64,000 nucleotides of DNA from Spirochaetaceae bacterium (GCA_051531975.1 JAOPTT010000009.1:465456-529455); one strand, 5' to 3'; positions 1-18,836 are shown, counted from the first letter of the stretch. Made by a program: numbers and translations. Notes: a model not told the origin generated them from the letters alone.

Positions 1-2160
1 ATTGATTTTGAGACATTTCTCTATGAGGGATATAATTTTACAACTGATAATAACTCAGCAATAGAAATTGAGACTTATCCTCTATCGATAGATCGAGAGT
101 TACCTCTTGTACACGGGATAATTTCAAAAGGGCAAAATTATAACATATGGCAGGTTGCTAAAAGTGGCTATATGCCTGCAGAACCTGAAGTTCCTTATCA
201 GTTTTTTTTAACAATATCTGGTAAAGGTACAAACAAGATGCATCTTAAGGCAAAATTCTATAATAGTCATAATGAAGAAGTTGGGACTGCTTATATTTTG
301 ACTCCTGAAAACAGTGTCAATTTTGAATATTTTAATTTTTTCGGTGAATATATTACACCAAAAGATACGGCATTTGTAAGAATAGATATTCTCAGTTTTA
401 GTAGACCCGAGCAGAATACCCATTGGTGGATACATGATTTCTCAATTATAGAACTATCAGAATATAGTGCACCTAATAGGATAACTATAGATTATACACC
501 AGATAATAAGGATGAACTTATACCTTTTGTAAGGATGTTTTTCTCCCCTGAGGGAGGTGAAGTTTCGATTTCATTAGGAGATAAAGAGACTTTAATAAAT
601 ACTAAGAAGTATGATTTTAGTGGTTTCTTGTGGCAGAGACTGGAAAGTTTTAAACATTTAGGCAATTCATTTCCAGTTATAATCGAAAATAAAGGTGGTT
701 TTAATGGAATAAACGAGATTGTTTTGATACCAAAATCACAGTATCTGCAGGAGTCATTTATACTTAATGAAGCCATATCAAAATCAAGAAATTTAATATC
801 TTTAGAATCAGAATATGACTTTGACTATATAGGAAGCATACAAACACAACGTAATTATACAAATCTAAGTATGGGTCGGGCTCGGACATCTTTTAATGGA
901 ACTTTATCTAATAAAATCGATCTACTTAAAGATGGAAGTTACTATTTAACAATGTATCTTGGTGGTGAAGAGAATCTAAGTAATTTTGATATATCTCTAA
1001 ATGGCATTGATAGCGATGGTAACTTTAAGAAAAAGATCTCAATTTCAAAAACTGAAACAGAAAACATCGGAGTAATTTTAGAGAATAAAGATTCGGTTAA
1101 TGGAAGTTATTTCAAAGCTGTTTCGGATTTTCCAGGACTAATACCAAATCTTCAAAAATATACAATAATTACAGATCCATTACCTAAAGGAAGCTATGAA
1201 TTAAACATAGATCTTAAATACACTGGTAAATCATTAATCGATATCAGTAAAATGAAATATTTTAATCCAAAAGAGGTTGTTGTTCCAGATTTTAAAGAAC
1301 CTGTAGATCTAGATGGGTATAGTGATTGTATTTTTATTACAAGGGATATGATAAGGCACAATTTAAGTAAAGATTTCTTGGGGATTGAATATGACCCAAC
1401 CTGTAGTGCTGATTGGTATATATCATCATCTCCAAAAGTCCTAGTTAAAAGTGGAGAGGAGTATATTATTAGTTTTAATATGAAGTCGGAAAAACTTAAT
1501 AGTAGACATACAAAAATACTATATTTAAATGATCTAGATCAGGTTATTAAAACTGATTTTATACCTGAAGTAGAAGAAAGGTTTAAAAGAAACTGGAATT
1601 CATACCAGTATATTTCAAAAGCCCCTGATAATGCAAAAAGTTTAATGTTTCATATCTGGGGTCGAGGAGACAAAAAAGAACAATCATCTTCAAGTATTAA
1701 GAACCTATCACTATACCCGTATAAAAATCTCCCATTACTAGACAGAATGTATATTAGTATGGAACCGTTAGAGACACTTTTTAAGGATATAAAAAGTGAT
1801 TCTGTATATGCGTCAATAAAGAGTTCTCCAACAATGCGTAAGTTTGAAAGCAAATATAATAATAATGAAATATCTGCATTTAAATTTGATATTAGCCCAC
1901 ACCCCATATGGGCATTAAATATAAATGGAAATGAAACAATTTCAGATACAAATTTAAATGGTTTAAGGGCATTATATTTTACTAAAGATAGTGGAGTAGC
2001 TAAAGTTGAGCCAAGATTGAAAACACACTATATCTTGGGGTTTGTTTTATGGCCTATTGGTTTTTTTATACTTTTTTACTTATATGTTTATGCAAAAAAA
2101 AGAGAATCCCTCATTGTATTATTTAGAAGGATTCTCAATAAATTATTTAATAAAGAGTAA
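1..2160 (+). CDS. 5'-truncated large membrane-anchored protein with two CBM-like beta-sandwich repeats; possibly the C-terminal part of a GT-C (YfhO/AftD-like) glycosyltransferase
   Basis: Frame is open from base 1 (IDFETFLYEG...) into the ORF at 172. It has two similar domains, a 'PHPIWALNING' segment like YfhO-type C-termini, and a C-terminal TM helix (YILGFVLWPIGFFILFYLYVY) with a basic tail. Confidence 0.5.
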   Translation: MDFETFLYEGYNFTTDNNSAIEIETYPLSIDRELPLVHGIISKGQNYNIWQVAKSGYMPAEPEVPYQFFLTISGKGTNKMHLKAKFYNSHNEEVGTAYILTPENSVNFEYFNFFGEYITPKDTAFVRIDILSFSRPEQNTHWWIHDFSIIELSEYSAPNRITIDYTPDNKDELIPFVRMFFSPEGGEVSISLGDKETLINTKKYDFSGFLWQRLESFKHLGNSFPVIIENKGGFNGINEIVLIPKSQYLQESFILNEAISKSRNLISLESEYDFDYIGSIQTQRNYTNLSMGRARTSFNGTLSNKIDLLKDGSYYLTMYLGGEENLSNFDISLNGIDSDGNFKKKISISKTETENIGVILENKDSVNGSYFKAVSDFPGLIPNLQKYTIITDPLPKGSYELNIDLKYTGKSLIDISKMKYFNPKEVVVPDFKEPVDLDGYSDCIFITRDMIRHNLSKDFLGIEYDPTCSADWYISSSPKVLVKSGEEYIISFNMKSEKLNSRHTKILYLNDLDQVIKTDFIPEVEERFKRNWNSYQYISKAPDNAKSLMFHIWGRGDKKEQSSSSIKNLSLYPYKNLPLLDRMYISMEPLETLFKDIKSDSVYASIKSSPTMRKFESKYNNNEISAFKFDISPHPIWALNINGNETISDTNLNGLRALYFTKDSGVAKVEPRLKTHYILGFVLWPIGFFILFYLYVYAKKRESLIVLFRRILNKLFNKE

Positions 2161-4119
2161 TGTATGATTTATATTTCCATTTAAGTCTAGAAACCAATCA
2201 CTGTCTGATAAACCATCACTATCAACCCAGCTATCATAATTAGTATACACCTGGTTTATCTCTACATCATCTTTAGGGTATTTGAAGCTTGAAGGTAAAT
2301 TAAGCGCCCAAGGACGATTATTTACAGTTTTATAGCTATCACCGTCAATTACTGTACTATAATCACTAGTTAAAACACTATTGTCATCGACGGAATTAAA
2401 ATAATCAATATGCACAAGATCTGTTGGAGCTTTCCCAGGTAGGTGAACTTCCCTTCCTCTCTCTCCATTACTCATAATAAACGGGTTATATGGAGGGTAA
2501 CCAAGATCGTTTCTAGTTACAGGATCTGTAAACTCAACAGTAATAACCATTTCAGTTCCAACATTCTCTACAAAATGTTGTTGTGCTGATTCAAAAATTC
2601 CAATTACAGCTTTAGATTGACGTTTTTCAGTTCCATTATTATCTCTTTTTATATATCCTCTTGAGAATTCTCCTCCTGTTGTATTTGCTATGTTATCAGG
2701 ACTTAAACCTAGTTCTATAGCAAATCCATTATTCATACTAGCTAGCATTCCTTGTATTAAGAACCAAGCCTTTATTGATACTACATCACCTGCTGAATTT
2801 TTATACTCTTCTATTCTTATATCGATTACTAAATCGTTAAAATCATAATCACCCATATGTGGCCAAAGATCCTCATACGCTAGTGTTCCATAATTACCTT
2901 CTGAAGGGTAGTAGTCTATTGCTGATAAATTACTATTATTAGGAAAGCTATCTAATGTATCAATTATTCCATCTCCATCACTATCTATTGTAGGACTATC
3001 TTCAGGTACTACTATACCATCCTTATCTATTGCAGTAATTGGGTTAGACTCTACAGAAAATATTGCGTCATTGAAGTCGTTATCACCATATGGTCTTTCA
3101 AGGTCTTCAAAAGATATAATAACTCTTTCATCAAATGCTATCTGAACAACATGTTGATTATTAGGACTTTCTTCTTTATTTAATTCATCTATAGAGTAGA
3201 ATGTATTATTACCATTTCCAACACTTGAGTCCGATTCAAAGCCATTTGCAACAAGTGCCCAGGCTATTGTTGTTCCAGCAGAAAAATCACCAATCTTTAC
3301 AGTATCACCTGAAGTTAAACCACCACCACTTCCACTATATGAAACATTTGGATAAATTATTGTAAGATCACTTTTTTCTATAGTACTTGGAATTCCACTA
3401 TTAGTTTGATATGTAAAAAATAGTAGTACATTTTTATATCCTGCACCTTCATGGACAAAAGTTACAAAGACTTCACCATCTTCGACAATACTTATATTAG
3501 TAATAGCACCATCAGAAAGATATTGAGGGTTATTTTCAGGAACAGGCTGATTTTCTGGAAGAACTGAGTTTAATACAGTTAAAAAATCTGATGTAAACAG
3601 TTCATTACTAAGAATATAATCGGGAACACCACTATTATCCCAGCTTCCTAAAGTTTGATAAGCACTATCTTGTTTTGATTTTGGTTTTCCTCTGGAAAAA
3701 TATGTAGCATTATTTAAATCTTTGGAAAAATATGTATATTTTATCTCACCATTTATCAAAGGAACCACGATAGATTGTGGAAGACCAATATAATCTGTTT
3801 TTAGAACTATTTCGGTTACATATGCTGGTATCGTTGTTGTTGTAGTTATCTTACCATTTCTATTAGAAATAACTGAAAGTCTTTTTTGCGTATCAAAATA
3901 TATATTTATAGGTACGCTGCTAAAAACAGTATCTATATCAAATGAAACTAGATTTGATGTTTCATAATTAAATTTTTCATTTTCAACAATAATGATATCA
4001 TTATCATCACCAATATTATCTTCAATAATTTCTTCAAAGTTATCATCTATTTGCTCAAAAAACGGGTTTTCACAAGATAAAGAAATTATTATTGTTATTA
4101 AAATCGCTATATATTTCAT
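2143..4119 (-). CDS. LruC/DUF4842-domain lipoprotein with DUF4114-like and thrombospondin type-3-like Ca-binding motifs
   Basis: GGAGG SD before ATG at 4119; signal MKYIAILITIIISLS-C; motifs FVHEGAGYKN, FEDLERPYGDNDFND, DSDGDGIIDTLDSFP, AYEDLWPHMGDYDFNDLV, REVHLPGKAPT, PWAL. Confidence 0.85.
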   Translation of the reverse strand: MKYIAILITIIISLSCENPFFEQIDDNFEEIIEDNIGDDNDIIIVENEKFNYETSNLVSFDIDTVFSSVPINIYFDTQKRLSVISNRNGKITTTTTIPAYVTEIVLKTDYIGLPQSIVVPLINGEIKYTYFSKDLNNATYFSRGKPKSKQDSAYQTLGSWDNSGVPDYILSNELFTSDFLTVLNSVLPENQPVPENNPQYLSDGAITNISIVEDGEVFVTFVHEGAGYKNVLLFFTYQTNSGIPSTIEKSDLTIIYPNVSYSGSGGGLTSGDTVKIGDFSAGTTIAWALVANGFESDSSVGNGNNTFYSIDELNKEESPNNQHVVQIAFDERVIISFEDLERPYGDNDFNDAIFSVESNPITAIDKDGIVVPEDSPTIDSDGDGIIDTLDSFPNNSNLSAIDYYPSEGNYGTLAYEDLWPHMGDYDFNDLVIDIRIEEYKNSAGDVVSIKAWFLIQGMLASMNNGFAIELGLSPDNIANTTGGEFSRGYIKRDNNGTEKRQSKAVIGIFESAQQHFVENVGTEMVITVEFTDPVTRNDLGYPPYNPFIMSNGERGREVHLPGKAPTDLVHIDYFNSVDDNSVLTSDYSTVIDGDSYKTVNNRPWALNLPSSFKYPKDDVEINQVYTNYDSWVDSDGLSDSDWFLDLNGNINHTLLFIK

Positions 4120-4142
4120 ACTAGCCTCCGCATATAAATAAT

Positions 4143-4160
4143 ATGCACAAACCGTACCAA
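4143..4160 (-). promoter_or_regulatory. sigma54 (-24/-12) promoter for the LruC gene
   Basis: Minus strand reads TTGGTACGGTTTGTGCAT, i.e. GG-N10-GC, close to consensus TGGCAC-N5-TTGCA; lies just upstream of the SD and ATG. Confidence 0.8.
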
Positions 4161-4162
4161 GT

Positions 4163-5533
4163 TTACGAAATATTATGCTTATCCATCTTGTAATAGAGTT
4201 GTCTTCTAGAAACCCCAAGTTCCTCTGCAACAATTGATTTATTAAATCGATTCTTTTTTAAGCATTTTTTTATTAACTGTATCTCTAAGTAATCAATATT
4301 TTCTTGGAGATTAAATGAATCTATTTCTTTGTGACTCTTAGCTGTATTTGAGTTTAAACTGGATAGTGGAATATCATCTACAGTAATTGTAGTTGATTCA
4401 CACATTGCAAAGGATCGGGCAATAATATTTTCTAGTTCCCTAATATTTCCTGGAAAATCAAAACTTTGCAATTTTTTAACTGCATCTTTATTAATCGTAA
4501 CTTCTTTCTCATACTCATTATTAAAGTTACGTAAAAAGGTATCGATTAGGATGGGAACATCATCTATACGTTCCCTTAATGGTGGAATCTCTATTGGAAT
4601 AATATTTAATCTATAATATAAATCTTCTCTAAATTCGCCATTAGAAATAAGTTTAGAAAGGTTTCTATTTGTTGCAGTAATTATTCTTGCATCAGAAAAT
4701 AGTTTTTCAGTCCCTCCTACTCTTTCAAAAGAACCATCTTGCAATACCCTAAGAAGTTTTACCTGTAGACTAATATCCATATCTCCAATTTCATCAAGAA
4801 AAAGTGTTCCTTGATTAGCTAATTCAAAACGACCTTTTTTACTAGTTATAGCCCCTGTGAAGGCCCCTTTTTCGTAACCAAACATCTCACTTTCTAAAAG
4901 GGTAGAAACAATTCCAGCACTATTGGTTTTAATATACGATCTGTTTTGCCTACTACTTCCGTAGTGTATCTGGTCAGCAATTATCTCTTTACCTGTACCA
5001 CTCTCGCCTAATATTAGCACAGGGAAATTACTATTCTGAGCTGTTTTTATCATTTTATGAACACTTAACATTGAATTACTAGAGGCAACAAAATCCTTTG
5101 TAATAGTTAAAATCGAGACTCTTTTCTCTAGCAAAGAAATTTTAAACTCATTACTTATAATAGTGAACAGTTGATTGAGTTTTAATATCAATTCTTCTAG
5201 TATTATAGGTTTAGATATATAGTCATAGACCCCTTTTTTAATAAAAGAGATTGCATTTGTAACGCTTCCACTACCAGTTATAACTATAATGTATGGAGGA
5301 TGTTCATATTTAAGTAGAATATCGATTAATACACTACCACCTTTTTTAGGCATTTTTAAATCAACTAATACAATATCAAATTTTATAAGATTTAGTTCGG
5401 TTATTGCACTATCTACAGAAGATACACATTTTAGAAATATTTCGTCCCATATTTCTGATCTTCTTAAACCACGCTCTAAGGAGTTTAAATACGATGTTTC
5501 ATCGTCAACAATTAGTATACTTTTTTTTATCAT
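4163..5533 (-). CDS. NtrC/AtoC-family sigma54-dependent response regulator (REC-AAA+-Fis HTH)
   Basis: IVDDE...DLKMP receiver; GESGTGKE Walker A; ESEMFGYEKGAFTGA; LFLDEIG; FREDLYYRL; FPGNIRELEN; C-terminal HTH. Confidence 0.95.
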   Translation of the reverse strand: MIKKSILIVDDETSYLNSLERGLRRSEIWDEIFLKCVSSVDSAITELNLIKFDIVLVDLKMPKKGGSVLIDILLKYEHPPYIIVITGSGSVTNAISFIKKGVYDYISKPIILEELILKLNQLFTIISNEFKISLLEKRVSILTITKDFVASSNSMLSVHKMIKTAQNSNFPVLILGESGTGKEIIADQIHYGSSRQNRSYIKTNSAGIVSTLLESEMFGYEKGAFTGAITSKKGRFELANQGTLFLDEIGDMDISLQVKLLRVLQDGSFERVGGTEKLFSDARIITATNRNLSKLISNGEFREDLYYRLNIIPIEIPPLRERIDDVPILIDTFLRNFNNEYEKEVTINKDAVKKLQSFDFPGNIRELENIIARSFAMCESTTITVDDIPLSSLNSNTAKSHKEIDSFNLQENIDYLEIQLIKKCLKKNRFNKSIVAEELGVSRRQLYYKMDKHNIS

Positions 5534-5626
5534 AAATTTGTTTTCCTAATATTAATAGTATATGATTAATTGATAATATACAAATTTTGCACACTTTGAG
5601 TTAATCTTTTCTCATAAGGAAATAAA

Positions 5627-6826
5627 ATGAAAATTAAAGAAAAAGTTATCTATCCATTTCTTGATATTCTTTTAAATGGTTTTAATTATGGTTTTCATGT
5701 TTACACTAGTTGGTATTTAATAAAAAGATCCTACGCTGTTCTAAACGCCTATTTAGCCCTTGTTTCACTTCTTATGGTTATTGGAATAGCACTTCAGAGT
5801 TACAATGCAAAACTCTCAGCAGGGGTTAAGATTTCCGGAACAGATTTAAAATTAGTAAATCCTTTTATTATTATGGGAATTCCATCAATTCTTTTAATCA
5901 TATTTTCACCTATTATTGTCCCATTCCTAAAAGGAGATTTTTTATCTTTAATTATAATCTCTATACTTCTTATTTTGCACTCGGTTTTAAGTAGTGGCCG
6001 AGGGTTAATGCAGGGGCAGGGAAGCTTCCTAAAACTTAATGTTAGTTTCTATATTGAAGTTATAGTTAAGATTGCTTTTTTAATAATATTTATGCCTAGG
6101 TTTCCTAATATTTATATCCCACTTCTTTCTATATTATTAGGTTATACCATAGCCCTGGTGCACCTTAAGTTTTATGTTGTTACTCTTAAAATTAGAAAAC
6201 TTCAACTAATGGGTGTTAAAAGCTTTTTGAAAAATAAAAAGATTGTTGTTTTCATTTTGAGTCAGTTTTTCATCTATAGTTATTTCTCAATGGATATGAT
6301 TCTAGTTAATGGATTACATCAGGAATTCGCACCTATATACGCGATAGTCCAAAAATTGGGTATGATCCAGTTTTTTGTTGGAAGTAGTTTAATGGCAGTT
6401 TTTTTACCTGAACTTGCGGATAATAGTATTGATAATTATGAATTTGAGAGAAGGTGGAAACGATTTCTTATTATACTAGTTATAGTATTAGCTTTCTTTC
6501 AGATATTCTATAACACTGTTTTCAAAATGATACTTCCATATATGTTTGGTGAACAATATCTTTCAGCAGGAGACTGGGTTCCATATGGAGGGGTGATATT
6601 TGCACTTTTAGTAATAATTAATTTCTTTATCATTACACTATTGGCCAAAAATAGCAGGATCTTTAATGTTGTTTTATTTGCTGGACTAGTTTTAGTGTCA
6701 GTTGGCATCATAATTGCAAGATCTATTAGTGAGGTACTGCTAATTGAAGGTATCGTGTATTTTGTTATCGCTCTAAGCTTATATGGAGTTATACTTAAGG
6801 AGAAAAAGAGATGGAATATAATTTAA
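5627..6826 (+). CDS. Wzx/MOP-like oligosaccharide flippase
   Basis: About 12 hydrophobic segments; RGLMQGQGSF, MDMILV and MFGEQY motifs typical of polysaccharide flippases; first gene of a GT operon. Confidence 0.7.
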   Translation: MKIKEKVIYPFLDILLNGFNYGFHVYTSWYLIKRSYAVLNAYLALVSLLMVIGIALQSYNAKLSAGVKISGTDLKLVNPFIIMGIPSILLIIFSPIIVPFLKGDFLSLIIISILLILHSVLSSGRGLMQGQGSFLKLNVSFYIEVIVKIAFLIIFMPRFPNIYIPLLSILLGYTIALVHLKFYVVTLKIRKLQLMGVKSFLKNKKIVVFILSQFFIYSYFSMDMILVNGLHQEFAPIYAIVQKLGMIQFFVGSSLMAVFLPELADNSIDNYEFERRWKRFLIILVIVLAFFQIFYNTVFKMILPYMFGEQYLSAGDWVPYGGVIFALLVIINFFIITLLAKNSRIFNVVLFAGLVLVSVGIIIARSISEVLLIEGIVYFVIALSLYGVILKEKKRWNII

Positions 6827-7971: not shown

Positions 7972-7980
7972 GAGATTAAA

Positions 7981-8859
7981 ATGAATAATTTAGTATCTAT
8001 AGTAATAACTACGTATAACAACAAATTAAAGGTAGACGAAGCCATATTAAGTTCAGTACATCAGAGCCATAAAAACCTTAATATTATTGTTGTTGATGAC
8101 GGATCAATTGATGGCACCCCTGAACACTTAACATCTCTTGCTGAAGAACATTCTGGGTTAAAATTAATTCTTAAAGAGCACGGAGAGAGAGGATTAGCTC
8201 GGGAAGCAGGTATAAAACTTTCAATGGAATTAGGTAGTGATTATCTGTTTTTTATGGATGATGATATGATTCTAGACTATCAGTTAGTAGAACTATGCCT
8301 TAAGTATTTTACATCTTATGAGAATTTAGGAGCTTTAGTAATACCTGAGAGACCATATTCAACTTATACAAATTTCTACAGTAAAGTAAAAGTATTTGAA
8401 AGGTCTATTATTAATAATGCAGGTAGGACCCTAGGGAAAAACTCAATTGAGGCTGCACGGTTTTGGAAGATGAATGCATATAACCAATCAGGTGGGCTAA
8501 ATCCCACAGAGATATCATTCGAGGAGACTCAACCAACAATAAGATATAGGGATAATGGTGGATATATTTTAAGAGCAGTTGATACATTTCTACGTCATGA
8601 TGAAAAAGAAGCAACATTTAAAGGGATAATTTCCAAAAAATATTACTACTTTAACTTAATGAATAAGACTTTCGAGTCAGAAGATAAAGGTTTTTTAAAG
8701 GCTCTAAGTAGATGGTATTTTTTTAGACCCGTACTATATAGAGCAGGTAATATACTTAGAGCTCTTAGGCATCCCATATTAGCTATGGGCATGTTTTTTA
8801 TGTATGTTTGCCTAAGTTTTACTGGCGTTGTTGCACTACTTAGAAAGCCTAGACTTTAA
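7981..8859 (+). CDS. Glycosyltransferase family 2 (GT-A) with C-terminal hydrophobic segment
   Basis: VSIVITTYN, VVDDGSIDGT, GLAREAG, FFMDDD (DxD). Confidence 0.9.
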   Translation: MNNLVSIVITTYNNKLKVDEAILSSVHQSHKNLNIIVVDDGSIDGTPEHLTSLAEEHSGLKLILKEHGERGLAREAGIKLSMELGSDYLFFMDDDMILDYQLVELCLKYFTSYENLGALVIPERPYSTYTNFYSKVKVFERSIINNAGRTLGKNSIEAARFWKMNAYNQSGGLNPTEISFEETQPTIRYRDNGGYILRAVDTFLRHDEKEATFKGIISKKYYYFNLMNKTFESEDKGFLKALSRWYFFRPVLYRAGNILRALRHPILAMGMFFMYVCLSFTGVVALLRKPRL

Positions 8860-9231
8860 ATAAGCTGCGTAATCAATTGATTCATTTATAATCTTGATTG
8901 CATCAGCTTCAAGTTTCCAGGGTTTGGTTATAAATCTATATACTTCACCACTATTCATTGCGTGTAATATTGTTGTTACATCAGCATAACCTGTAAGCAT
9001 AACACGTACACTTCCAGGGGAGCACTCTTTTGATTTCTGTAGCAACTCAAAACCATTCATTTCTGGCATTAGAATATCAGATATAATAACATCAGGTTTT
9101 CTTAAATTTATTTCCTTTAAAGCATCAATAGCACTTGTAAAGTAAAAACCATTAAAATCTTCATTCCTAAAAGCTCTTTTTATACTATTTAATACACTTT
9201 GTTCATCATCTATAAAAAATACTTCATTCAT
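8836..9231 (-). CDS. Stand-alone response regulator receiver protein
   Basis: FIDDE, ISDILMPEMNG, LTGYAD, TKPW; start overlaps upstream stop (ATGA). Confidence 0.92.
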   Translation of the reverse strand: MNEVFFIDDEQSVLNSIKRAFRNEDFNGFYFTSAIDALKEINLRKPDVIISDILMPEMNGFELLQKSKECSPGSVRVMLTGYADVTTILHAMNSGEVYRFITKPWKLEADAIKIINESIDYAAYLKSRLSK

Positions 9232-10334
9232 ATTTTACCTCTATTTTGTTTTGGAATTGAAAAAATTGCCTTTATAAACATTAGTGAATCTTTAATAATA
9301 TTTATGTGTGAACCCTCTCTGTCATAACAAGTAACTGGAAGTTGTAAAACTCTAAACCTATATTTTTTCGCTAAATATAACATTTCTAAGTCTGCTGCTA
9401 ATCCATTTTGTATATGCATATTATTAAGCAAAGTCTTAGCAACAGAACTTCGCATTCCCTTTAATCCTGTTTGTGAGTCTTTAACTCCATATGGTAACAA
9501 CCCCTTAGTTAAAAAACGTTTTACAAAACTCATAAGTCTTCTTATTGGTTTTCGATCCTCTGCAGTTTGGTCCTTAGTTCCAACAATAAAATCATAATAA
9601 CCATCCTGGAGTATATTAATCATCTTTGATACATCTTCCATAATAAATGAATCATCACCATCGAGAAAAAAGATATATTCCGCATCTACATTTTTAATTC
9701 CCTCAATGTAAGTACCAGCTTTACGGGTATTAACAATTAGGTTATGAGCAGAAAACAAAGGGCTCTTTTCAACTATATTGATCTCTTCATTTTTAGAGCT
9801 TACCATTTTGTTTAGAAGATTCAATGTGTCATCTTTACTTCCATCATTTACAAAATATATTGATGAGTTAATAAATGAGTTTTCAATTAATCCTTGTAAT
9901 TTTTTTGTTTGATTTAAAATATTCTGAAATCTTTGTTCTTCGTCAAATACTGAAACAATAATAGCTATGTCATGTTTCTTCCAAGGATATTCTGGGTGAA
10001 TGAGACTTTGACTATTAAGTAAAACTGAAGCTTTAAATCTATCCCTATATTCTAAAACTCTTGTAGCACCTAACCCATTTACATGTTTCAATATTTTAGT
10101 ATTTGTAGAGTTAGGATAATTAACCAATAATAAAATAGGTATAGAACTATCCTTACTTCTAATTTCATTTGCAATACTAATAGAATCATCTTGATCAAAT
10201 AAATCAATAATGACTAATAGCAGATTCTCAATAATATATGTTTTATCCAAAAAGGTAGCTTTGTAATATCCTAATATTGATTCATACTCAATTGATCTTT
10301 TTTGGTCGCTGTAAACTCCAATTGCCTCGGTCAT
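9228..10334 (-). CDS. Pseudo-receiver domain fused to a GT2 polyprenol-phosphate glycosyltransferase (DPG/DPM-synthase-like)
   Basis: N-terminus LLVIIDL...IANEIRSKDSSIPILLL is receiver-like; C-terminal part has IIVSVFDEEQR, FVNDGSKD, FLDGDDS, DSQTGLKG, AADLEML. Confidence 0.75.
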   Translation of the reverse strand: MTEAIGVYSDQKRSIEYESILGYYKATFLDKTYIIENLLLVIIDLFDQDDSISIANEIRSKDSSIPILLLVNYPNSTNTKILKHVNGLGATRVLEYRDRFKASVLLNSQSLIHPEYPWKKHDIAIIVSVFDEEQRFQNILNQTKKLQGLIENSFINSSIYFVNDGSKDDTLNLLNKMVSSKNEEINIVEKSPLFSAHNLIVNTRKAGTYIEGIKNVDAEYIFFLDGDDSFIMEDVSKMINILQDGYYDFIVGTKDQTAEDRKPIRRLMSFVKRFLTKGLLPYGVKDSQTGLKGMRSSVAKTLLNNMHIQNGLAADLEMLYLAKKYRFRVLQLPVTCYDREGSHINIIKDSLMFIKAIFSIPKQNRGKI

Positions 10335-10385
10335 AATCTCTCCTTTTATAAATTATATTTCTTTTTATATCTTAAATATTAAAAT

Positions 10386-11588
10386 CTAAAAAATTATTTG
10401 TTGTAGCTTTAATACTAACTGAAATCCTAAGTCTCTAGTTTGGATTTCTTCTATAACAGAAAATCCCTCTGGTTTTAGTACAGATATGTAAATTTCAAAA
10501 AGAGTATCTTCTGACCAAAGATTTTTCCACTTTAACCCACCTGAAAATATAGTTCCAATAAATGAGTCTTCTCTATCTTCAATGTCATATGTTTTAGCAG
10601 TAAAATGTGATGATGCACTTAACCAAATGTTAATATTATCTTTATCCCATGATTGATTAAGTCCAATACTATTTAATCCGTAAATATTACCAGCCTCTTG
10701 ATAGAGGTAGTTAAAATGAGAGCCATAATGAAATTCAAGATTCTTATTATCAATAGATGTAAAGTTATAGTTATCTGTTATTTCGTCATTACTAGTTAGA
10801 TGTGCACCAAGAATTTTCGTCTTAAAATTGAAATAATTAATTGAAACTTCTTCCCTTATAGCCCATGTAGAGACTTCATCACGGTACGCTAATCCAACAA
10901 AAGTATTAGCCTCTACAAAATCTAAATTTATATTATGATTAACTGATGGGTATATGGAATTAAAAAAATTAGAGTCCTGATACTCTATAGGGAGCCTAAA
11001 CAAAACTTTGTTACTTTGTAAGTTTAGATCAATTCCTAATAAGTTAATTATTAAATTGTCATCATTATATTTTTCACTATTAAAATCGTATGAACCATCA
11101 TCATTATAAGTATTAAATAAGCTATAAAAAATTCCTGAATAAAAGACATCTAAAATATCAGATTTATAACCTAATTCACCCTGACCTGTTGTAACTGTTG
11201 TTCCAAATCCAAAGGGCAACGATGCATTATATTTCCCAAACTTTATATAAAGTGGGGAGTCTTTATAATATCCTTGATAAAATGTATCTGCTTTTAATTG
11301 ACCACTAAGTTCTCCATCTTTTCCAAAACTACCATCTAGACTGCCAAGAGAACCAAAAAGTTCTATATTTAATAAAAGTATATTTCGGTTATCAGTCCAT
11401 ATAAATTGTGCAGTTAAAGATGTTAATAATTTAGAAATAGGAGTATTGTCAATTTCATTACCATCGTCATCATATATTAAATTAACTTCATCATAATTCT
11501 CATAAATTAATGCTGGTATACCACCAATTTGAACTTCAGAATATAATCTTAAAGGAATTAATAATAATAAAATAATGATTTTTTTCAT
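10386..11588 (-). CDS. Secreted probable outer-membrane beta-barrel protein
   Basis: Signal peptide MKKIIILLLLIPLRLYS; alternating hydrophobic/aromatic strands; C-terminal Phe (GFQLVLKLQQIIF). Confidence 0.55.
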   Translation of the reverse strand: MKKIIILLLLIPLRLYSEVQIGGIPALIYENYDEVNLIYDDDGNEIDNTPISKLLTSLTAQFIWTDNRNILLLNIELFGSLGSLDGSFGKDGELSGQLKADTFYQGYYKDSPLYIKFGKYNASLPFGFGTTVTTGQGELGYKSDILDVFYSGIFYSLFNTYNDDGSYDFNSEKYNDDNLIINLLGIDLNLQSNKVLFRLPIEYQDSNFFNSIYPSVNHNINLDFVEANTFVGLAYRDEVSTWAIREEVSINYFNFKTKILGAHLTSNDEITDNYNFTSIDNKNLEFHYGSHFNYLYQEAGNIYGLNSIGLNQSWDKDNINIWLSASSHFTAKTYDIEDREDSFIGTIFSGGLKWKNLWSEDTLFEIYISVLKPEGFSVIEEIQTRDLGFQLVLKLQQIIF

Positions 11589-12739
11589 TATTTATCAATC
11601 TCAATTGTTAATATTGTAATATCATCATCTATCTCTTCTGTTAGATGACGATCATAAATAGATTTTAGGATCTTGGTATGATTTGAAAGATCATTTATAT
11701 TTTCCTGGAGAATATTAATTAAATCATCTTCTGTATAAATCTCAGAACTATTTCCTGAAGGATATATACCGTCAGAACAGATAAAGATTTTTGAAGAAGG
11801 TTTAATTTCTATTGTTTCATTTGTGTAACTATTATCCTTTTCAATTCCAAGTACGATATTATTATTTTCTATAATTGAAACACTATTATTATTAAGTATT
11901 ATTGGTCTAGGCTGTCCAGAATTTGTGCAAGTACAGAGTTTATTGTCCAGATCAATGTATAGACATGTTAATGTTACAAAAAGCCCCGGATAAGGTTTTA
12001 AATAATCATAGAGTCTATTATTAAGCCATTGTGTAAACTTAATAGTTGAAAAGCTGTCGGTTTGAATATTTTTGAAATATTCAAAAGGAATTATTGATTT
12101 TAAAGCCATGGAGATAAATGCAGGTTGTATTCCGTGACCTGAGACATCCCCTAAAAGAACCACAATTTTCGTCTCTGATAATTTAAAAATATCATAGTAG
12201 TCACCACTGACACCAGTACTTATACAAGGTTGGTAAGTTACATTTATTGTAATAGGAAGATCTTTTTTTATAGCATTATCCATAATAGTCTTTTGAAAAT
12301 CCCTAGCCAAATGAAGCTCTCTTTTTATCTTCTCTTTTAATTCCCTATTCTCTTTTTTTATTAGAAAGTGATTCATTGCCTTTTTAATCTCTTCTTGCAA
12401 TTCAATGTTTTGCCATGGTTTTCCAATGAAAGAAAATATCTGAGATTTAATCATTTTCTCCATATCTTTCAAGTCCGAATGACCTGAGAGTATAATTGGG
12501 ACAATATCTGGATATTTGTTTTGAATAATTGATATAAGTTCATTACCGTTTAAATCAGGCATTCTTTGGTCAGATACAATGACACCAATTTCTTTTGAAT
12601 AACTTTTTAGCTCCCTAATAGCATCTTTTGCGGAAGTTACCATAATCGCTGTTATCCCTTCATCCCTAAACCAATTCTTTAGGCTTCTATTAATAGAGGT
12701 TAGAACATTTTTATCATCATCAATAAATAGTATATACAT
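11588..12739 (-). CDS. Receiver + PP2C/SpoIIE (RsbU-like) phosphatase
   Basis: FIDDD, VSDQRMP, KPW; VSGDYYD, GDVSGHG, NSGQP, CSDG, DDITIL. Confidence 0.92.
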   Translation of the reverse strand: MYILFIDDDKNVLTSINRSLKNWFRDEGITAIMVTSAKDAIRELKSYSKEIGVIVSDQRMPDLNGNELISIIQNKYPDIVPIILSGHSDLKDMEKMIKSQIFSFIGKPWQNIELQEEIKKAMNHFLIKKENRELKEKIKRELHLARDFQKTIMDNAIKKDLPITINVTYQPCISTGVSGDYYDIFKLSETKIVVLLGDVSGHGIQPAFISMALKSIIPFEYFKNIQTDSFSTIKFTQWLNNRLYDYLKPYPGLFVTLTCLYIDLDNKLCTCTNSGQPRPIILNNNSVSIIENNNIVLGIEKDNSYTNETIEIKPSSKIFICSDGIYPSGNSSEIYTEDDLINILQENINDLSNHTKILKSIYDRHLTEEIDDDITILTIEIDK

Positions 12740-12744
12740 CTGTA

Positions 12745-13506
12745 TTATCCTTCTATTCTTTCAAAAAGAATTAAAAACTTATATGGGTCTGATGGTCTTA
12801 ATAATCTAATAAATATAACATAGTTATGTTCGGATATTTTTAACTCAAAATCTTTTTGATCTGCATTATTATGTGCCCCTGATTCTATATTTTTATACAT
12901 TTCTTTAGAAATTATAGTTGTAATGTGATCCCCTATTACAAAGTTTTTTTCTAGCTCTTCTTTTGCATATTTATTAAAATTATCGATTATACCTTTCTCA
13001 TTAATTGCTATTATTGAAATATTCACTTCATCGATAACTTGTTTATCAAGAACAAGACTTGAATCTCTAAAGGATAACTTCATCTTAAGTCGGCGATTTT
13101 CTTCTAAAATTTGCTCAATATACTTTTTCTTTTTTACTTCAGATTCCCATTTCCCAATAGCCTGATTAATACAATCTAGCATCTCATCATAATTCCAAGG
13201 TTTGGAAATAAATCTAAATATTTCACCTTGGTTAATCGCATTTATAATAGTTTCACTATCAGCGTATCCAGATAAAATAATTCGAATTGTAGCTGGGTAG
13301 AGAGTTTTTACTTGTTTCATTAACTCTAAACCATTCATTTCCGGCATTCTTTCATCTGACAAAATGACTTTATAATTTCCCGCTTTAAGTAGTTCAAGAG
13401 CTTCATTCCCACTGTTACAGGTATCAATAGTAAATTTTTCTTTTCTAAACTGTCTTTTTATTGAGGATAATATCTCTTTTTCATCATCAACAAACAATAT
13501 TTCCAT
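12745..13506 (-). CDS. Receiver + PAS-like domain protein
   Basis: FVDDE, LSDERMPEMNG, LSGYAD, SKPW; C-terminal IIAINEKGIIDNFNKYA is PAS-like. Confidence 0.8.
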   Translation of the reverse strand: MEILFVDDEKEILSSIKRQFRKEKFTIDTCNSGNEALELLKAGNYKVILSDERMPEMNGLELMKQVKTLYPATIRIILSGYADSETIINAINQGEIFRFISKPWNYDEMLDCINQAIGKWESEVKKKKYIEQILEENRRLKMKLSFRDSSLVLDKQVIDEVNISIIAINEKGIIDNFNKYAKEELEKNFVIGDHITTIISKEMYKNIESGAHNNADQKDFELKISEHNYVIFIRLLRPSDPYKFLILFERIEG

Positions 13507-13604
13507 TATTACCCCATAATGTAATTTTTATTTATTTCATCTTATATTTCAAGCAATTTATTTTTGTATTTGTATTTTTCTCACAGTTAAATAATAATTA
13601 TATT

Positions 13605-14843
13605 ATGAAAAGTTTATTGAAAAAAATTACAATTTTATCTTTTTTTTTAATTCCACTGTTTGATTTAATATCTGAAACAAATGAATCATATAAAATATAC
13701 TTAAATGCAGATATGAGTGGTTCTAAATTATCAGGGGAAGCAATCGAGATGGGAATTAATGTCGCATTATCCGAGGTGAACTATACAATAGGTGATCGCA
13801 AAATTGAACTTGTAATTAAAGATCATCATGGGAATAGTAGGCGTAGTTTAAAATATCTCGAAGAGTTTGCATCAGATGAGAATGCATTAGTTACATATAC
13901 TGGGCTCCACTCATCTGCAATTATCAACAATTTTGATTATATAAATAAAAATGGAATACCAATATTAAATCCATGGGCTGCAGCTGGTCCTATAAGTAGG
14001 AGTATTGATAGTCTTGGTAGAAATTGGATATTTAGATTATCAGTCGATGATACTAAAGCAGGAGAGGTTATTACTTCATATTCCCTCGATGTTGAGAAGT
14101 TTAAAAATCCTATTTTGTTACTTGAAAACACACCATGGGGTAAATCAAATTATAAAAATATGAGAAAAGCTATAACATCAAGGGGTTTCAGAGATCCTGA
14201 AGTAATATGGTTTTCTTGGGGAATTAAAGAGATAGGTAGCAAACAAATTCTAAGTGATATATATAGTAAAAATAATGATGTTATTTTTTTTGTTGGTAAT
14301 TCACCAGAGGGGATCGTCTTTTCTAGAGCGATGTCTCAGAGAGAAGAAAATAAAAGAATTCCGATAAGGAGTCATTGGGGTATTACTGGAGGGAATTTTT
14401 TTGAGAGTTTAGGTTCTAATATTATAACTAATAAAATAGATCTTAAATTTATCCAAACCTCATTCTCGTTTTTGGATAAACCTGGAACAGATTTCTCTAT
14501 TAATGTTTTTAAAAATATAAAAAAACAATTTTCAAATATCAAAGATCCAAATGACTTAAAAGCACCAAATGGATTTATACATTCCTACGATTTAACTAGA
14601 ATATTTATTGAAGCGTGTAAACATATTAATTTTACTGAAGATATTAAGCTAAATAGGGAATTATTAAGAGTTGCATTAGAATCAGTTGAAACACCAATAA
14701 AAGGACTTGTTAAAACCTATAATAAACCATTTTCAACATTTACCCCCGAAAATGACTCTGCACACGAAGCCCTTAGTATTGATAACTTTAGGATGGCCAG
14801 ATATCTACCAAATGGTAGTATCGAGGTTATTAATGATAAGTAA
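13605..14843 (+). CDS. Periplasmic substrate-binding protein (LivJ-like type 1 fold), probable sensory partner of the adjacent kinase
   Basis: Signal peptide from ATG at 13605; KDHHGN, WIFRLSVDD, LLLENTPWG; no ABC permease nearby; overlaps the kinase start. Confidence 0.8.
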   Translation: MKSLLKKITILSFFLIPLFDLISETNESYKIYLNADMSGSKLSGEAIEMGINVALSEVNYTIGDRKIELVIKDHHGNSRRSLKYLEEFASDENALVTYTGLHSSAIINNFDYINKNGIPILNPWAAAGPISRSIDSLGRNWIFRLSVDDTKAGEVITSYSLDVEKFKNPILLLENTPWGKSNYKNMRKAITSRGFRDPEVIWFSWGIKEIGSKQILSDIYSKNNDVIFFVGNSPEGIVFSRAMSQREENKRIPIRSHWGITGGNFFESLGSNIITNKIDLKFIQTSFSFLDKPGTDFSINVFKNIKKQFSNIKDPNDLKAPNGFIHSYDLTRIFIEACKHINFTEDIKLNRELLRVALESVETPIKGLVKTYNKPFSTFTPENDSAHEALSIDNFRMARYLPNGSIEVINDK

Positions 14844-16689
14844 CATATTAAAAAAACGTAATAGCATATTATTAAAAACGGCAATATATTCATTTGGTAT
14901 TTTTGGACTGATTATGTTCTTTTCTATTACACTATTTATATGGATAACTGAAAGAAACCTTACTGAACTTGTTATAGATCAAAACGTTGAGCAATTATTT
15001 AATATTAAAACTCAATTTGATAAAAATATTGATAACTATAAATTTATACTTGAACAGGATTCAAATTCCTCCATATTTACAACCGCAGTTATGAATCCTG
15101 TAGATACAGAGTATTATTTAAAAGATTTTATGGATGATCTAAAAATAAGTAATCTAGACGGAGAATTACTACTATTAGCATTTGATGGACAGATAATATA
15201 TAGCACACACAACTCCGTAAATAAGATTAATAATATATTTACAAACTTTTCAGAAATTCTAGAAGTATTAGATACCAAAAAAAGTACACAAATATTAGAT
15301 GCCAATAATAATGTAGTTTTTATAAGTTGTATTAAATATAATGATCTAGTTGAGGGGTATCTAATTTTTATAACCGATTTTCAGAATATCTTTGAACATA
15401 ACCTTCATCTTTTTGAATCTGATACACATAAGCACTCATTTTCAGTATTAAATGGCAAGAATATTATTGCTAAAGTTGGCGAAACATCTGAAAGATTTAT
15501 CAGCTCTAATTTTACTCTTGAAAGTTTACCACTATCGTTACAAATAGATACGGATGAAAATGTTATTAAGGAATCTACAAGTGAAATACTACATAGTATT
15601 AGTTTAATATCAATATTATCTGTTATTTTACTTGCTATAATTTTCTCAATTATAACATCAAAAACAGTTACAAAACCATTATCAATACTTGAACATGAAA
15701 TCACTTTAGTTGGGAAAGGTGAACATGATAATCTACCCTTTAGAAAGAAAGACCCAATAGAAATTAAGTTTTTAAGGTCGTCATTTAATCAAATGCAAAA
15801 GGCTATAATAACTAATAAAGTGGAATTAGAAGAGTTTAATAGAAAACTTTTAAGTATCAACAGCGATTTAAAGTCAACTCAGAAGCAGTTAGTACAAAGT
15901 GAGAAAATGGCTTCATTGGGGCAATTAGCCGCAGGTGTTGCACATGAAATTAACAATCCTACAGGTTTTGTAACAACCAATTTACATACAATGAAAGAGT
16001 ATATTTGTGTTTATAATACTCTTTATAAACATAATGAAGAACTTTACAGCTATATAAAAGACAATATTAAAGAAACACAAATATTGAAGTTTATTGAGGA
16101 TATAGAAATTATAAAAAAAGAAGAAGATTTTAAATTCATATTAGAAGACACTACGGATCTGCTTGAAGAATCAATTGACGGTGTTGTTAGAATAAAAGAT
16201 ATTGTTACAGGTCTTAGGAATTTCGCAAGACCTAAAAGTAAAATAACTTCACCAGGAAATATAAATAACGGCATAAAGGATGCTTTAAGGTTAACAATAA
16301 ATGAGCTAAAATATACATGTACTATAGAGCAGAACTTAGGAAAATTAGTTGATGTTCCTTGTAGATTAGATCAAATAACACAGGTTTTTGTAAATTTACT
16401 TGTAAATGCGGCTCATGCAATAAAAGATCAAGGTTTTATAAAACTTACTACCTGGCAAGAAGATGAATTTATATTTGCATCAGTTGAAGATAATGGAGAA
16501 GGAATAAAACCTGAGAATATTGAAAAACTTTTTGATCCTTTTTTTACAACAAAAGAAGTTGGTAAGGGAACTGGCTTAGGACTTTCAATCTCTTATGGAA
16601 TAATAGAAGAGCATGGAGGTTCTATAGATGTCAGAAGCAAAGTTGGTGAAGGAACTTGTTTTACTCTTAAATTCCCCATAAACACCTAG
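14833..16689 (+). CDS. Membrane sensor histidine kinase (TM-periplasmic-TM-HAMP-HisKA-HATPase)
   Basis: GAGG SD before ATG 14833; LVQSEKMASLGQLAAGVAHEINNP H-box; NLLVNAAHA, DNGEGI, FDPFFTTK, GTGLGL. Confidence 0.95.
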   Translation: MISNILKKRNSILLKTAIYSFGIFGLIMFFSITLFIWITERNLTELVIDQNVEQLFNIKTQFDKNIDNYKFILEQDSNSSIFTTAVMNPVDTEYYLKDFMDDLKISNLDGELLLLAFDGQIIYSTHNSVNKINNIFTNFSEILEVLDTKKSTQILDANNNVVFISCIKYNDLVEGYLIFITDFQNIFEHNLHLFESDTHKHSFSVLNGKNIIAKVGETSERFISSNFTLESLPLSLQIDTDENVIKESTSEILHSISLISILSVILLAIIFSIITSKTVTKPLSILEHEITLVGKGEHDNLPFRKKDPIEIKFLRSSFNQMQKAIITNKVELEEFNRKLLSINSDLKSTQKQLVQSEKMASLGQLAAGVAHEINNPTGFVTTNLHTMKEYICVYNTLYKHNEELYSYIKDNIKETQILKFIEDIEIIKKEEDFKFILEDTTDLLEESIDGVVRIKDIVTGLRNFARPKSKITSPGNINNGIKDALRLTINELKYTCTIEQNLGKLVDVPCRLDQITQVFVNLLVNAAHAIKDQGFIKLTTWQEDEFIFASVEDNGEGIKPENIEKLFDPFFTTKEVGKGTGLGLSISYGIIEEHGGSIDVRSKVGEGTCFTLKFPINT

Positions 16690-16816
16690 CCACATAATAC
16701 TTCACAAAAATTTAACTATATGAATATTCTCTTATTTGACATTGGTAGCTAAAAGATATCTAATTACTCTCAATTATCAATACTATATTACTTATAAGGT
16801 TTAAACATATAAATAT

Positions 16817-18097: not shown

Positions 18098-18098
18098 G

Positions 18099-18836
18099 TT
18101 AAAAATGTCTTTTATTCTTAATTTTATCAATTATGGTAAATATAGTATCAAATCCAAGAGCCAGAAGTGCTGTTAATATAGCTCCAGTAAATATATATGA
18201 GATATTATTATCAATTAATCCAGATATAATTAGTGAACCTAAACCTCCACCAGCAACTACAGCGGCAATAGCAGCGGTACCAACATTTATTACTACAGTT
18301 GTTCTAATACCAGCTAATATAATATCGATAGACAGAGGTATTTCAACTTTTAATAAAACCTGCATTTTATCCATCCCTATCGCTTTAGAAGCCTCTATAA
18401 CCGACTTGTCTACTGCATTTATACCAGCGATTGTATTGCTTACAATTGGGAAAATACTATAAATGAATAGGGCTGTAAAAGCTGGTGCAAATCCATAACC
18501 TAATGCTGGCACTGATAGTGCTAATACTGCTGCAGGAGGGAATGTTTGCATTATTGATATAAGTGATTCTACTAATTCTAATAGGTTCTTTCCTGTGTCT
18601 CTAGTCACAAATATACCTAAAGACAGTCCCACAATTATTGCAGATATTGATGATAATAAAACCAGAACTATATGTTCTATAAACATATCACTTAGGATTA
18701 ATCGGGGATGCATAACTTTTTTTATTCCAGGAAATATTGATTTAAGTATAAAACCAGTAAATTCTATATTAAATATAAAAAGGAATGTAAAAGTTAACAG
18801 ACAAAGAAGTAGTATATATTTAATTGTTTTATTCAT
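18099..18836 (-). CDS. Osmoprotectant ABC transporter permease (YehW-like)
   Basis: QTFPPAAVLAL, EASKAIGM (EAA loop), GGGLG. Confidence 0.9.
   Translation of the reverse strand: MNKTIKYILLLCLLTFTFLFIFNIEFTGFILKSIFPGIKKVMHPRLILSDMFIEHIVLVLLSSISAIIVGLSLGIFVTRDTGKNLLELVESLISIMQTFPPAAVLALSVPALGYGFAPAFTALFIYSIFPIVSNTIAGINAVDKSVIEASKAIGMDKMQVLLKVEIPLSIDIILAGIRTTVVINVGTAAIAAVVAGGGLGSLIISGLIDNNISYIFTGAILTALLALGFDTIFTIIDKIKNKRHF

Follow-up and report, generated by a model that had tools for sequence, protein, structure and literature searches.

Two conserved gene modules, a predicted glycan cassette and a LruC lipoprotein module, lie interleaved at one locus of a Spirochaetaceae bacterium

Does a stretch of tightly packed glycosyltransferase, receiver and lipoprotein genes in a Spirochaetaceae bacterium encode one surface-glycan system, and what part would its LruC lipoprotein play in it? 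The DNA analysed here, called the window, comprises 64,000 nucleotides (nt) with about 30% G+C (GCA_051531975.1 JAOPTT010000009.1:465456-529455; G000:C9:465456-529455 in our own numbering of genomes and contigs, in which loci are marked L), and the 16.7-kb locus studied is window 1-16689. Genes were identified via open reading frame (ORF) listing and Pfam/NCBIfam scans, and all the genes named in a first-pass annotation of this DNA were present where it had placed them. That annotation had taken the locus for one system built around LruC. Our analysis instead suggests that the region consists of two conserved modules, interleaved in this Spirochaetia bacterium and under common sigma54 control, in which a glycan cassette (Module A) is joined to LruC as a handler of the glycan (Module B). 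We give this reading a probability of roughly 0.55.

ORF1 and the glycan cassette

The predicted cassette genes and the receiver genes among them lie at the following window positions.

About -2297..2160 (G000:C9:463158-467615), + strand: ORF1, whole gene, 1485-1488 amino acids (aa), with the predicted GT-C membrane domain upstream of the window
1..2160, + strand: C-terminal 719 aa of ORF1, an extracytoplasmic beta-rich domain and a single C-terminal transmembrane (TM) anchor
5627..6826, + strand: divergent 12-TM Wzx-type (MOP) flippase, whose orthologues match PF01943
6811..7971, + strand: GT4 glycosyltransferase (Pfam/NCBIfam), with 48-58% identical orthologues at other ORF1 loci
7981..8859, + strand: GT2 glycosyltransferase with a C-terminal hydrophobic helix (Pfam/NCBIfam)
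8836..9231, - strand: single-domain receiver (REC), in a 4-nt overlap with the end of the polyprenyl-phosphate-type GT2 gene
9228..10334, - strand: polyprenyl-phosphate-type GT2 (DPM1/GtrB/ArnC-like) of 368 aa with an N-domain of about 120 aa, without TM helix
12745..13506, - strand: member of the REC-X family, a receiver with a C-terminal extra domain (family about 212 aa, without DNA-binding domain)

Several adjacent genes of the locus overlap by 4-16 nt.

What kind of protein is ORF1? Membrane helices make up its first 470 residues or so; a long outer part follows, and the C-terminus carries a single TM helix. An AlphaFold2 model of residues 1-760, based on an alignment of 27 sequences (pLDDT 83.4, pTM 0.86), showed a 13-helix N-terminal domain. 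The best Foldseek match of this model was mycobacterial AftD (6w98_A, E 1.4e-6), followed by STT3, PglB, ArnT, AftA, DPY19 and Pmt. In VIA-align, AftD scored Z 25.9 (539 residues aligned, root-mean-square deviation 4.1, ORF1 residues 18-724), yeast STT3 Z 23.9, PglB Z 19.6, AftA Z 18.4 and ArnT Z 17.6, and the top 47 rows (Z 9.8-25.9) held only GT-C enzymes or the GT-C-like PIG-U subunit. An Asp that is invariant in the ORF1 family lies in GHIVFSDLDF (about residues 42-51), right after TM1 (helix 18-34); other invariant loops are FRDPNK and YWWPM. GT-C enzymes share an acidic residue in their first loop outside the cytoplasm; this Asp agrees with it in position and may be catalytic. The multi-TM GT-C domain that the first-pass annotation had placed in the upstream part of this gene is thus found by model and by both structure searches. 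As modelled, the N-terminal domain has a GT-C fold, and by analogy ORF1 would use a polyprenyl-(di)phosphate-linked donor; the use of polyprenyl-phosphate mannose by GT-C enzymes is described in part of PMC3485146. According to a portion of PMC8035078, AftD, STT3 and ArnT are the usual top matches for any GT-C protein. Therefore, the fold sets the superfamily of ORF1, not its substrate.

Sequence searches gave ORF1 no name. Against Pfam at E <= 1, only Sec-ASP3 and a TM segment were returned, with no GT-C model (PF11847 included) and no STT3; none of 26 homologues matched PF11847 at E <= 0.01, NCBIfam gave noise only, and a 26-sequence profile found nothing better than E 0.23 among PDB sequences. 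The homologues number in the hundreds (1410-1560 aa), share 35-48% identity across Bacillota, Fusobacteria, Spirochaetia, Bdellovibrionales and others, carry no Pfam domain and are nearly all named 'hypothetical'. Nearer copies, 61-77% identical (P0002-P0006), are encoded on Logan contigs. In other words, this is a GT-C family of about 1480 aa without a significant Pfam/NCBIfam model or a source-given functional name. Matches in the outer part were below threshold (Sec-ASP3 in 5/26 homologues, CBM_4_9 in 1/26). The protein had been described as TM-anchored with repeats like carbohydrate-binding modules; the C-terminal anchor is present, but the module matches are sub-threshold, and the two putative segments matched each other only at BLASTP E 0.089, which does not demonstrate repeats.

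The best structural match, AftD (mycobacterial arabinofuranosyltransferase D; PDB 6w98, 6wbx, 6wby), resembles ORF1 in length (about 1400-1500 aa), in having an N-terminal GT-C domain, a large outer domain and one or more C-terminal TM segments, and in the polyprenyl-phosphate sugar synthase encoded nearby. However, the two proteins are only about 10% identical, ORF1 does not match PF11847, and carbohydrate-binding modules in its outer domain are only sub-threshold. Unlike AftD, ORF1 occurs in Bacillota, Fusobacteria, Spirochaetia and others, not in Mycobacteriales, and it travels with Wzx, GT4, GT2 and receiver genes.

Which genes accompany ORF1? One genome per species was scanned, which gave 67 ORF1 loci; an unbiased all-against-all clustering of ORFs covered 65 loci with 29 genus-level labels. 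The hosts are Paenibacillus, Clostridium, Exiguobacterium, Brevibacillus, Salimicrobium, Lysinibacillus and Peptostreptococcaceae, together with Fusobacteria, Kosmotogaceae, Margulisiibacteriota, Bdellovibrionales and two Spirochaetia metagenome-assembled genomes. A GT2 cluster was present at 61/65 loci (26/29 genus labels), GT4 at 57 (24 labels), the 12-TM Wzx-type protein at 56 (23 labels), the full-length polyprenyl-phosphate-type GT2 with its N-terminal extension at 53 (19 labels), REC-X at 51 (20 labels), a ManC-like nucleotidyltransferase at 46 (13 labels), and an ORF0-like membrane protein that overlaps or precedes the start of ORF1 at 29 (11 labels). BLAST of the window proteins against the ORFs of the 67 loci agreed with this clustering; its count for REC (55/67 loci) is inflated by generic receiver similarity, and the stricter cluster count is used here. 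In Paenibacillus, the five cassette enzymes form one co-directional operon. The co-occurrence of glycosyltransferase and flippase genes supposed in the first-pass annotation was thus borne out, at 53-61 of 65 loci in several phyla. As judged from gene content, Module A is a conserved cassette that comprises the giant GT-C protein, a Wzx-type flippase, GT4, GT2, the receiver-like::GT2 and a small receiver.

The flippase assignment comes from the orthologues. The 12-TM protein of the window itself had no Pfam match at E <= 10, while 6/6 cassette orthologues matched PF01943 (E 5e-14 to 2e-4, two above the gathering score), and in a language-model comparison (Atlas features) its neighbours were Polysacc_synt flippase clusters with a score of 0.99. 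By its orthologues, then, the protein is Wzx-like, as first called.

The GT2 encoded at window 9228-10334 is, by its profile matches, of the polyprenyl-phosphate type. Its nearest PDB entries were ArnC (7e-10), the dolichyl-phosphate mannose synthase (DPMS) of P. furiosus (6.7e-9) and GtrB (5.3e-7), and the seven best were all ArnC, DPMS or GtrB; the NCBIfam matches AglJ, PpgS and ArnC (1e-7 to 4e-10) were all below equivalog cut-offs. The protein contains no hydrophobic helix, so it has no C-terminal TM helices, and it may associate with the membrane via amphipathic helices. The first-pass label was 'receiver-like::polyprenol-P glycosyltransferase', of which the enzyme half holds. The receiver half is weak: the N-domain is conserved family-wide, and its Asp44 (at least 90% conserved) aligns with the REC acceptor Asp, but the hhalign match to REC was moderate (probability 65.7%, E 5.8e-5, 44 columns only) and the domain has no Pfam match. 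A REC gene lies directly 3' of this GT2 gene in the window and in L039, L012, L047, L055 and L060. A complex prediction for the GT2 and the adjacent receiver, run without controls, scored 0.00 against a mark of 0.32, a result that counts neither for nor against a complex.

Some side observations concern the receivers. The acceptor Asp of REC-X is replaced by Glu or Asn (TELRLP, TNLRLP) in Exiguobacterium/Salimicrobium (L032:19080-19688, L048:19124-19723, L036:7768-8430), which suggests forms that are independent of phosphorylation and possibly locked. For the three receiver domains of the window, the top-scoring NCBIfam model was the 'NosR-family' receiver, with E from 1e-49 to 5e-31.

How does the cassette compare with known pathways? 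In CsbB/GtcA/YfhO, GtrA/GtrB/GtrV and ArnC/ArnT, as described in part of PMC8035078, the polyprenyl-phosphate sugar comes from a cytoplasmic GT2, crosses the membrane by means of a flippase and is used outside by a GT-C protein. The cassette might be a variant of the three-component systems of this kind (CsbB/GtcA/YfhO, GtrA/B/V) that does no more than add side-chain sugars to a polymer synthesised by other genes, such as teichoic acid, lipopolysaccharide (LPS) or capsule. A polyprenyl-phosphate-type GT2 together with a GT-C protein is the hallmark of such systems (PMC8035078 and PMC11127046, each in part), and no initiating phosphoglycosyl transferase, Wzy, or chain-length or export protein was found among the window genes or the clusters conserved over the 65 loci. 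However, the conserved core has two extra cytoplasmic glycosyltransferases, and its flippase is of the Wzx type, not the GtrA type, all of which would be needless for simple decoration. The cassette is also shared by monoderm and diderm phyla, which do not have the same envelope polymers. We therefore regard decoration as quite unlikely. Two more differences from the known systems are the GT-C protein, which is roughly double their length, and the GT2, which has a receiver-like N-domain and no TM helices.

The actinobacterial lipomannan/lipoarabinomannan (LM/LAM) pathways and the archaeal Agl pathways (AglJ, AglG, AglR, AglB/AglS) resemble the cassette in their enzyme classes and in the sequence of these: GT4/GT2 on the inside, then a polyprenyl-P-hexose synthase, a Wzx-like flippase and, on the outside, a GT-C protein. 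LM/LAM synthesis involves the GT4 enzymes PimA/PimB, Ppm1, and GT-C mannosyl- and arabinosyltransferases; Agl pathways have the Wzx-like flippase AglR. However, the cassette matches (AglJ, AglG, Agl16) were all far below family cut-offs. To our knowledge, regulation by receiver proteins has not been described for LM/LAM or Agl pathways.

Further side observations were made at the cassette loci. The ManC-like genes encode an NTP_transferase with a mannose-6-phosphate isomerase C-terminal/cupin domain (for example, L007:15212-16609 and L032:19729-21063); the sole ManC-like gene detected in the window genome (G000) is on another contig (C2) and is 30% identical. In L042, the whole cassette is on plasmid p1 (189,727 bp) of Cetobacterium sp. 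SF1, a location consistent with a patchy, cross-phylum distribution. In the Kosmotogaceae locus, a GGDEF diguanylate cyclase gene (L010:14409-15659) lies directly 3' of the GT-C gene. Just upstream of the window, an ORF0-like protein of 384 aa (L002:2574-3728) overlaps the start of ORF1 by 35 nt. It has two TM helices flanking a periplasmic domain of about 250 aa, a coiled cytoplasmic tail and no Pfam family, and it looks like a sensor-like accessory subunit.

LruC, its regulators and the link to the cassette

The other features of the locus include those of Module B.

2143..4119 (ORF 2143-4233), - strand: lruC (TIGR04456, DUF4114, DUF4842), with ATG 4119 as the probable start
4144..4159, - strand: sigma54-type -24/-12 element before lruC (TGGTAC-N5-TGTGCA), within the 43 nt that separate the stop codon of ntrC from the ATG of lruC
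4163..5533, - strand: NtrC-type activator (bacterial enhancer-binding protein) with REC, Sigma54_activat (E 1.5e-65) and HTH_8, directly upstream of lruC
6703..6718, + strand: sigma54-type -24/-12 element TGGCATCATAATTGCA before GT4, 108 nt ahead of the GT4 ATG, within the 3' end of the flippase gene
10386..11588, - strand: secreted 400-aa protein with signal peptide and C-terminal Phe, a candidate outer-membrane barrel
11588..12739, - strand: REC-PP2C (SpoIIE-type) phosphatase, with a full-length orthologue that adjoins lruC in L016
13605..14843 (ORF 13461-14843), + strand: Peripla_BP_6 binding protein, the presumed sensor partner of the kinase, with likely start 13605
14833..16689 (ORF 14707-16689), + strand: membrane histidine kinase with two TM helices, a periplasmic domain, HisKA and HATPase_c, with likely start 14833

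Is LruC the substrate of the cassette or its partner? The protein scored 208.1 bits against TIGR04456 (cut-off 36), and from its probable start it has a hydrophobic leader/signal peptide with an invariant Cys16, that is, a lipoprotein signal. In the AlphaFold2 model (pLDDT 81.6), the N-terminus is a transthyretin/CnaB-like sandwich, a generic fold (Z about 8-9). The DUF4114 region (204-361) aligned with the fucose/mannose lectin PA-IIL (1gzt_A) over 109/114 residues at Z 7.1, the linker is TSP3-like and Asp-rich, and the C-terminal LruC/DUF4842 domain (373-658) matched 3oqq_A (Foldseek E 1.2e-9; Z 18.0, 242 residues aligned). The last of these is the putative lipoprotein BACOVA_00967 of Bacteroides ovatus, a structural-genomics entry without known function, so that it adds no mechanism. 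According to part of PMC9109919, it is through DUF4114 that PA-IIL-type lectins bind sugar in a Ca-dependent manner, and part of PMC11934332 reports binding to mannose-agarose for one DUF4114 domain. We also observed a natural fusion of 1097 aa (P0180), in which a membrane GT2 synthase (Glyco_tranf_2_3 type) is joined to a full LruC, and the two genes lie side by side as separate genes in L076, L093 and L116. Given the PA-IIL-like domain and this fusion, LruC is read as a glycan-handling partner and not as the acceptor. LruC may accept the glycan; as modelled, however, a role in binding it is likelier than one as a glycosylated substrate, and the earlier suggestion that LruC itself is glycosylated found no support.

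We also considered that the GT-C protein is an oligosaccharyltransferase, with LruC as the recipient of a flipped lipid-linked oligosaccharide, or with other surface proteins in that role where a host has no LruC. STT3, PglB and AglB matched the ORF1 model nearly as well as AftD did (Z 18.7-23.9), and residues 473-621 aligned with the C-terminal globular domain of AglB at Z 6.6. A GT4, a GT2, a Wzx-like flippase and a GT-C protein are also the make-up of pgl/agl pathways, NCBIfam gave weak matches to Agl16, AglG, AglJ, PglI and PglJ, and in Spirochaetia and Bdellovibrionales the immediate neighbour of the GT-C gene is in every case lruC. The WWDYG motif of oligosaccharyltransferases sits in the periplasmic domain. 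However, ORF1 has no such motif in its periplasmic domain; its only conserved WW (YWWPM, about residues 323-327) lies in a loop between membrane helices, and neither ORF1 nor its homologues had a Pfam STT3 match. LruC contains no Ser/Thr-rich or repeated sequon tract, and its disordered linkers are acidic. The lectin-like domain and the GT2-synthase fusion also speak against this idea, and so does the distribution, in which 62/65 cassette loci are without LruC and all 77 LruC loci collected from metagenomes are without ORF1. Protein glycosylation is very unlikely on these grounds.

If LruC is a partner, then it introduces the question of how firmly it is tied to the cassette. Among the 67 ORF1 loci, LruC was found at 3 (L016, L039, L055), a full-length NtrC at 2 and the secreted 400-aa protein at 2 (orthologues in L016 and L039 only), and a binding-protein orthologue lay beside ORF1 at none. 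None of the 77 metagenome LruC loci carried ORF1, the flippase or the GT2 with N-terminal extension. The single system built around LruC that the first-pass annotation had described thus resolves into two modules. The two might be no more than neighbours, with the cassette and a LruC/NtrC/kinase regulon interleaved in an accessory island and not cooperating: each is widespread without the other, the locus is patchy within its family (1/24 genomes), and the window, L016, L039 and L055 are not alike in the arrangement of their genes. However, despite this rearrangement lruC abuts the 3' end of ORF1 in these four loci, which are all the Spirochaetia/Bdellovibrionales loci with enough flank (4/4, two phyla). 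This adjacency was not seen outside Spirochaetia and Bdellovibrionales. The nearest LruC subfamily also tracks ORF1-bearing contigs, on which 10 of the 30 nearest LruC homologues apparently lie, and the sigma54 element ahead of GT4 is shared by the window and L039, in which ntrC is its divergent neighbour. Mere neighbourhood therefore seems unlikely to us.

What does LruC accompany where the cassette is missing? The LruC family has more than 2297 matches, and those named by their sources are mostly from Bacteroidota. A full-length NtrC-type activator was present at 9/77 metagenome LruC loci and a membrane GT2 synthase at 7/77. The activator lies directly upstream of lruC on the same strand in L084, L085, L143 and L144, and upstream on the same strand, interrupted by the contig end, in L131; the pair of activator and lruC is also found in L016 and L039. 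In L139, L143 and L147, a binding protein 42-47% identical to that of the window stands beside a histidine kinase, NtrC and LruC, and kinase orthologues are found at coverage 0.86-0.92. In 14 unselected LruC loci with long flanks, glycan-synthesis genes lay within three genes of lruC at 5 and two-component genes at 8. By gene content, then, Module B is a binding protein, a kinase and an NtrC-type activator predicted to act through sigma54 on LruC, and this set is met again in other glycan loci that lack Module A. As side observations, genes for H-NOX (haem-NO-binding) proteins with partner kinases and for REC-HD-GYP proteins adjoin LruC in other glycan loci (L143:6510-7115, L093:12048-12578). 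Together with the NosR-family-like receivers, these neighbours hint at biofilm signalling of the nitric oxide (NO) or cyclic di-GMP type.

The secreted 400-aa protein is rare: a search of 1.84 billion proteins gave 9 representatives (E <= 0.001). The signal peptide and C-terminal Phe agree with its earlier description as a barrel-like secreted protein. The barrel label, however, is a lead from a language model to Alginate_exp (PF13372; score 0.96, 11/30 matches) and no more than a lead: 7/7 members of the family had no Pfam match, and no PDB sequence match was found.

Is there sequence support for control by sigma54? The NtrC-type activator carries GAFTGA, and rpoN is present in the window genome (174 bits). 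The -24/-12 element before lruC matches the consensus at 9/11 positions, and equivalent elements are found in the same place in L016 (11/11) and L039 (10/11), with 9/11 elements before lruC in L118, L143 and L147; L094, L105, L110 and L127 (contig edges) were left out of this survey. The element before GT4, TGGCATCATAATTGCA, matches at 10/11 positions and lies in flippase coding DNA. In L039, TGGCATCATTATTGCA stands 44 nt before GT4, also at 10/11, in an intergenic position beside the divergent ntrC; despite the coding versus intergenic setting, the two elements differ at only 1/16 bases. The 5.46-Mb genome holds 69 sites of the quality of the pre-GT4 element, so that about 1e-3 would be expected per oriented 150-nt upstream region. 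No sigma54 site was found before the flippase gene or ORF0/ORF1, and sigma70 promoters and terminators, sought over 1-17200, were no more frequent than expected from shuffled sequence. The sigma54 claim of the first-pass annotation thus stands in part: rpoN is there and the motifs at lruC and GT4 are kept in related Spirochaetia loci, but the flippase gene and ORF1 have none. The motifs are present and conserved at the sequence level, and they may act as promoters.

A proposed pathway and its distribution

Based on these data, we propose the following pathway for the two modules. On the inner side of the membrane, the soluble receiver-like GT2 would charge polyprenyl phosphate with a sugar, probably mannose donated by GDP-mannose. 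In archaeal Agl pathways the lipid-linked sugar is extended by glycosyltransferases; likewise, GT4 and the second GT2 may extend the lipid-linked sugar here, or build the acceptor. The Wzx-type flippase would move the lipid-linked glycan outward, and the GT-C protein ORF1 would transfer or polymerise it onto an extracytoplasmic acceptor. On the control side, the periplasmic binding protein and membrane kinase would phosphorylate the NtrC-type activator, which with sigma54 would turn on lruC and the GT4-GT2 genes, and REC-X and the receiver-like GT2 domain may let a phosphorelay gate the pathway after translation as well. LruC, with its Ca-lectin-like DUF4114, would bind the finished glycan or keep it in place, either in the periplasm or on the outer membrane, through which the secreted 400-aa protein might provide passage. 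Mannose is suggested as the sugar by the ManC-like genes that neighbour the cassette.

However, a number of observations weigh against this proposal. The modelled fold of ORF1 carries no information on what the enzyme would transfer, the GT2 N-domain is only weakly receiver-like, and the ManC-like neighbours lie in other phyla, with none in the window locus. The DUF4114 region of LruC had 0 matches at E <= 1 to PDB sequences, and its fold match to PA-IIL is modest. Six of the 14 unselected LruC loci have neither glycan nor signalling neighbours, and Fusobacteria and Kosmotogaceae are also diderm, yet they carry the cassette without LruC. With respect to sigma54, the window lruC site reaches only 9/11, and no site was found before lruC in the activator- or ORF1-linked loci L084, L085, L144, L131 and L055. 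At two mismatches, the consensus occurred 22 times over the window against 15.7 expected, which is no enrichment; the two sites therefore count only by virtue of where they lie and of being conserved. Finally, ORF1 was not found in three genomes of the same genus (completeness 96, 81 and 71%), and it occurs in only 1/24 genomes of the same family, at 37% identity (the genome of L016).

This distribution bears on the origin of the locus. ORF1 was present in 2/41 genomes searched, the window genome included, and in none of 400 other sampled genomes of the phylum (E <= 1e-20). Conservation by vertical descent was rejected because ORF1 was not found in most of the relatives searched. Given its patchiness in genus, family and phylum, the locus is accessory, and by the same sequence comparisons it was probably acquired laterally. 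We also considered a further-reaching proposal, in which Module A is an undescribed, horizontally mobile pathway for a lipid- or wall-linked glycan that contains mannose. The synthesis of the polyprenyl-phosphate sugar, as its first committed step, would be switched directly by phosphorelay through the receiver-like GT2 domain and the dedicated receiver without DNA-binding domain, and LruC proteins, those of Leptospira included, would be Ca-dependent lectins capturing such glycans at the outer membrane. We hold this to be doubtful.

What is new here, and what was known? The openly accessible literature gave no description of the cassette or of LruC function, in agreement with the earlier statement that no system of this composition has been described. 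However, the logic is that of the multi-component transmembrane glycosylation systems covered in part of PMC8035078. That logic, together with LM/LAM and Agl, is known. New are the unannotated GT-C family, its fixed partners, which include the soluble receiver-like GT2 and REC-X, and the recurrent LruC/sigma54 module. Leptospira LruC is described as an antigen without assigned function. The window protein shares its LruC domain and lipoprotein signal and has a DUF4114 region that matches PA-IIL; however, its gene is part of a glycan locus, where an NtrC-type activator would control it, and its lectin role is a prediction.

The fixed partner genes define a glycan pathway that can be tested in harmless genera open to culture (Paenibacillus, Exiguobacterium and solventogenic Clostridium). 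If functional, the receiver-like GT2 and its receiver partner would place the supply of lipid-linked sugar under phosphorelay control. The linkage of LruC to glycan loci, sigma54 activators and a lectin-type domain offers a first functional hypothesis for a leptospiral antigen family, and a glycan-capturing, Ca-dependent lectin would, if true, be the first function for the LruC family. Joining the cassette to a signal-controlled, lectin-like LruC gives both gene sets a testable role, that is, making and holding a cell-surface glycan. No connection to the glycan locus was seen for the genes that follow it (window 16817-21028), which encode a triple-rhodanese protein and then, on the opposite strand, an ABC transporter of two permeases and an ATPase with CBS domains.

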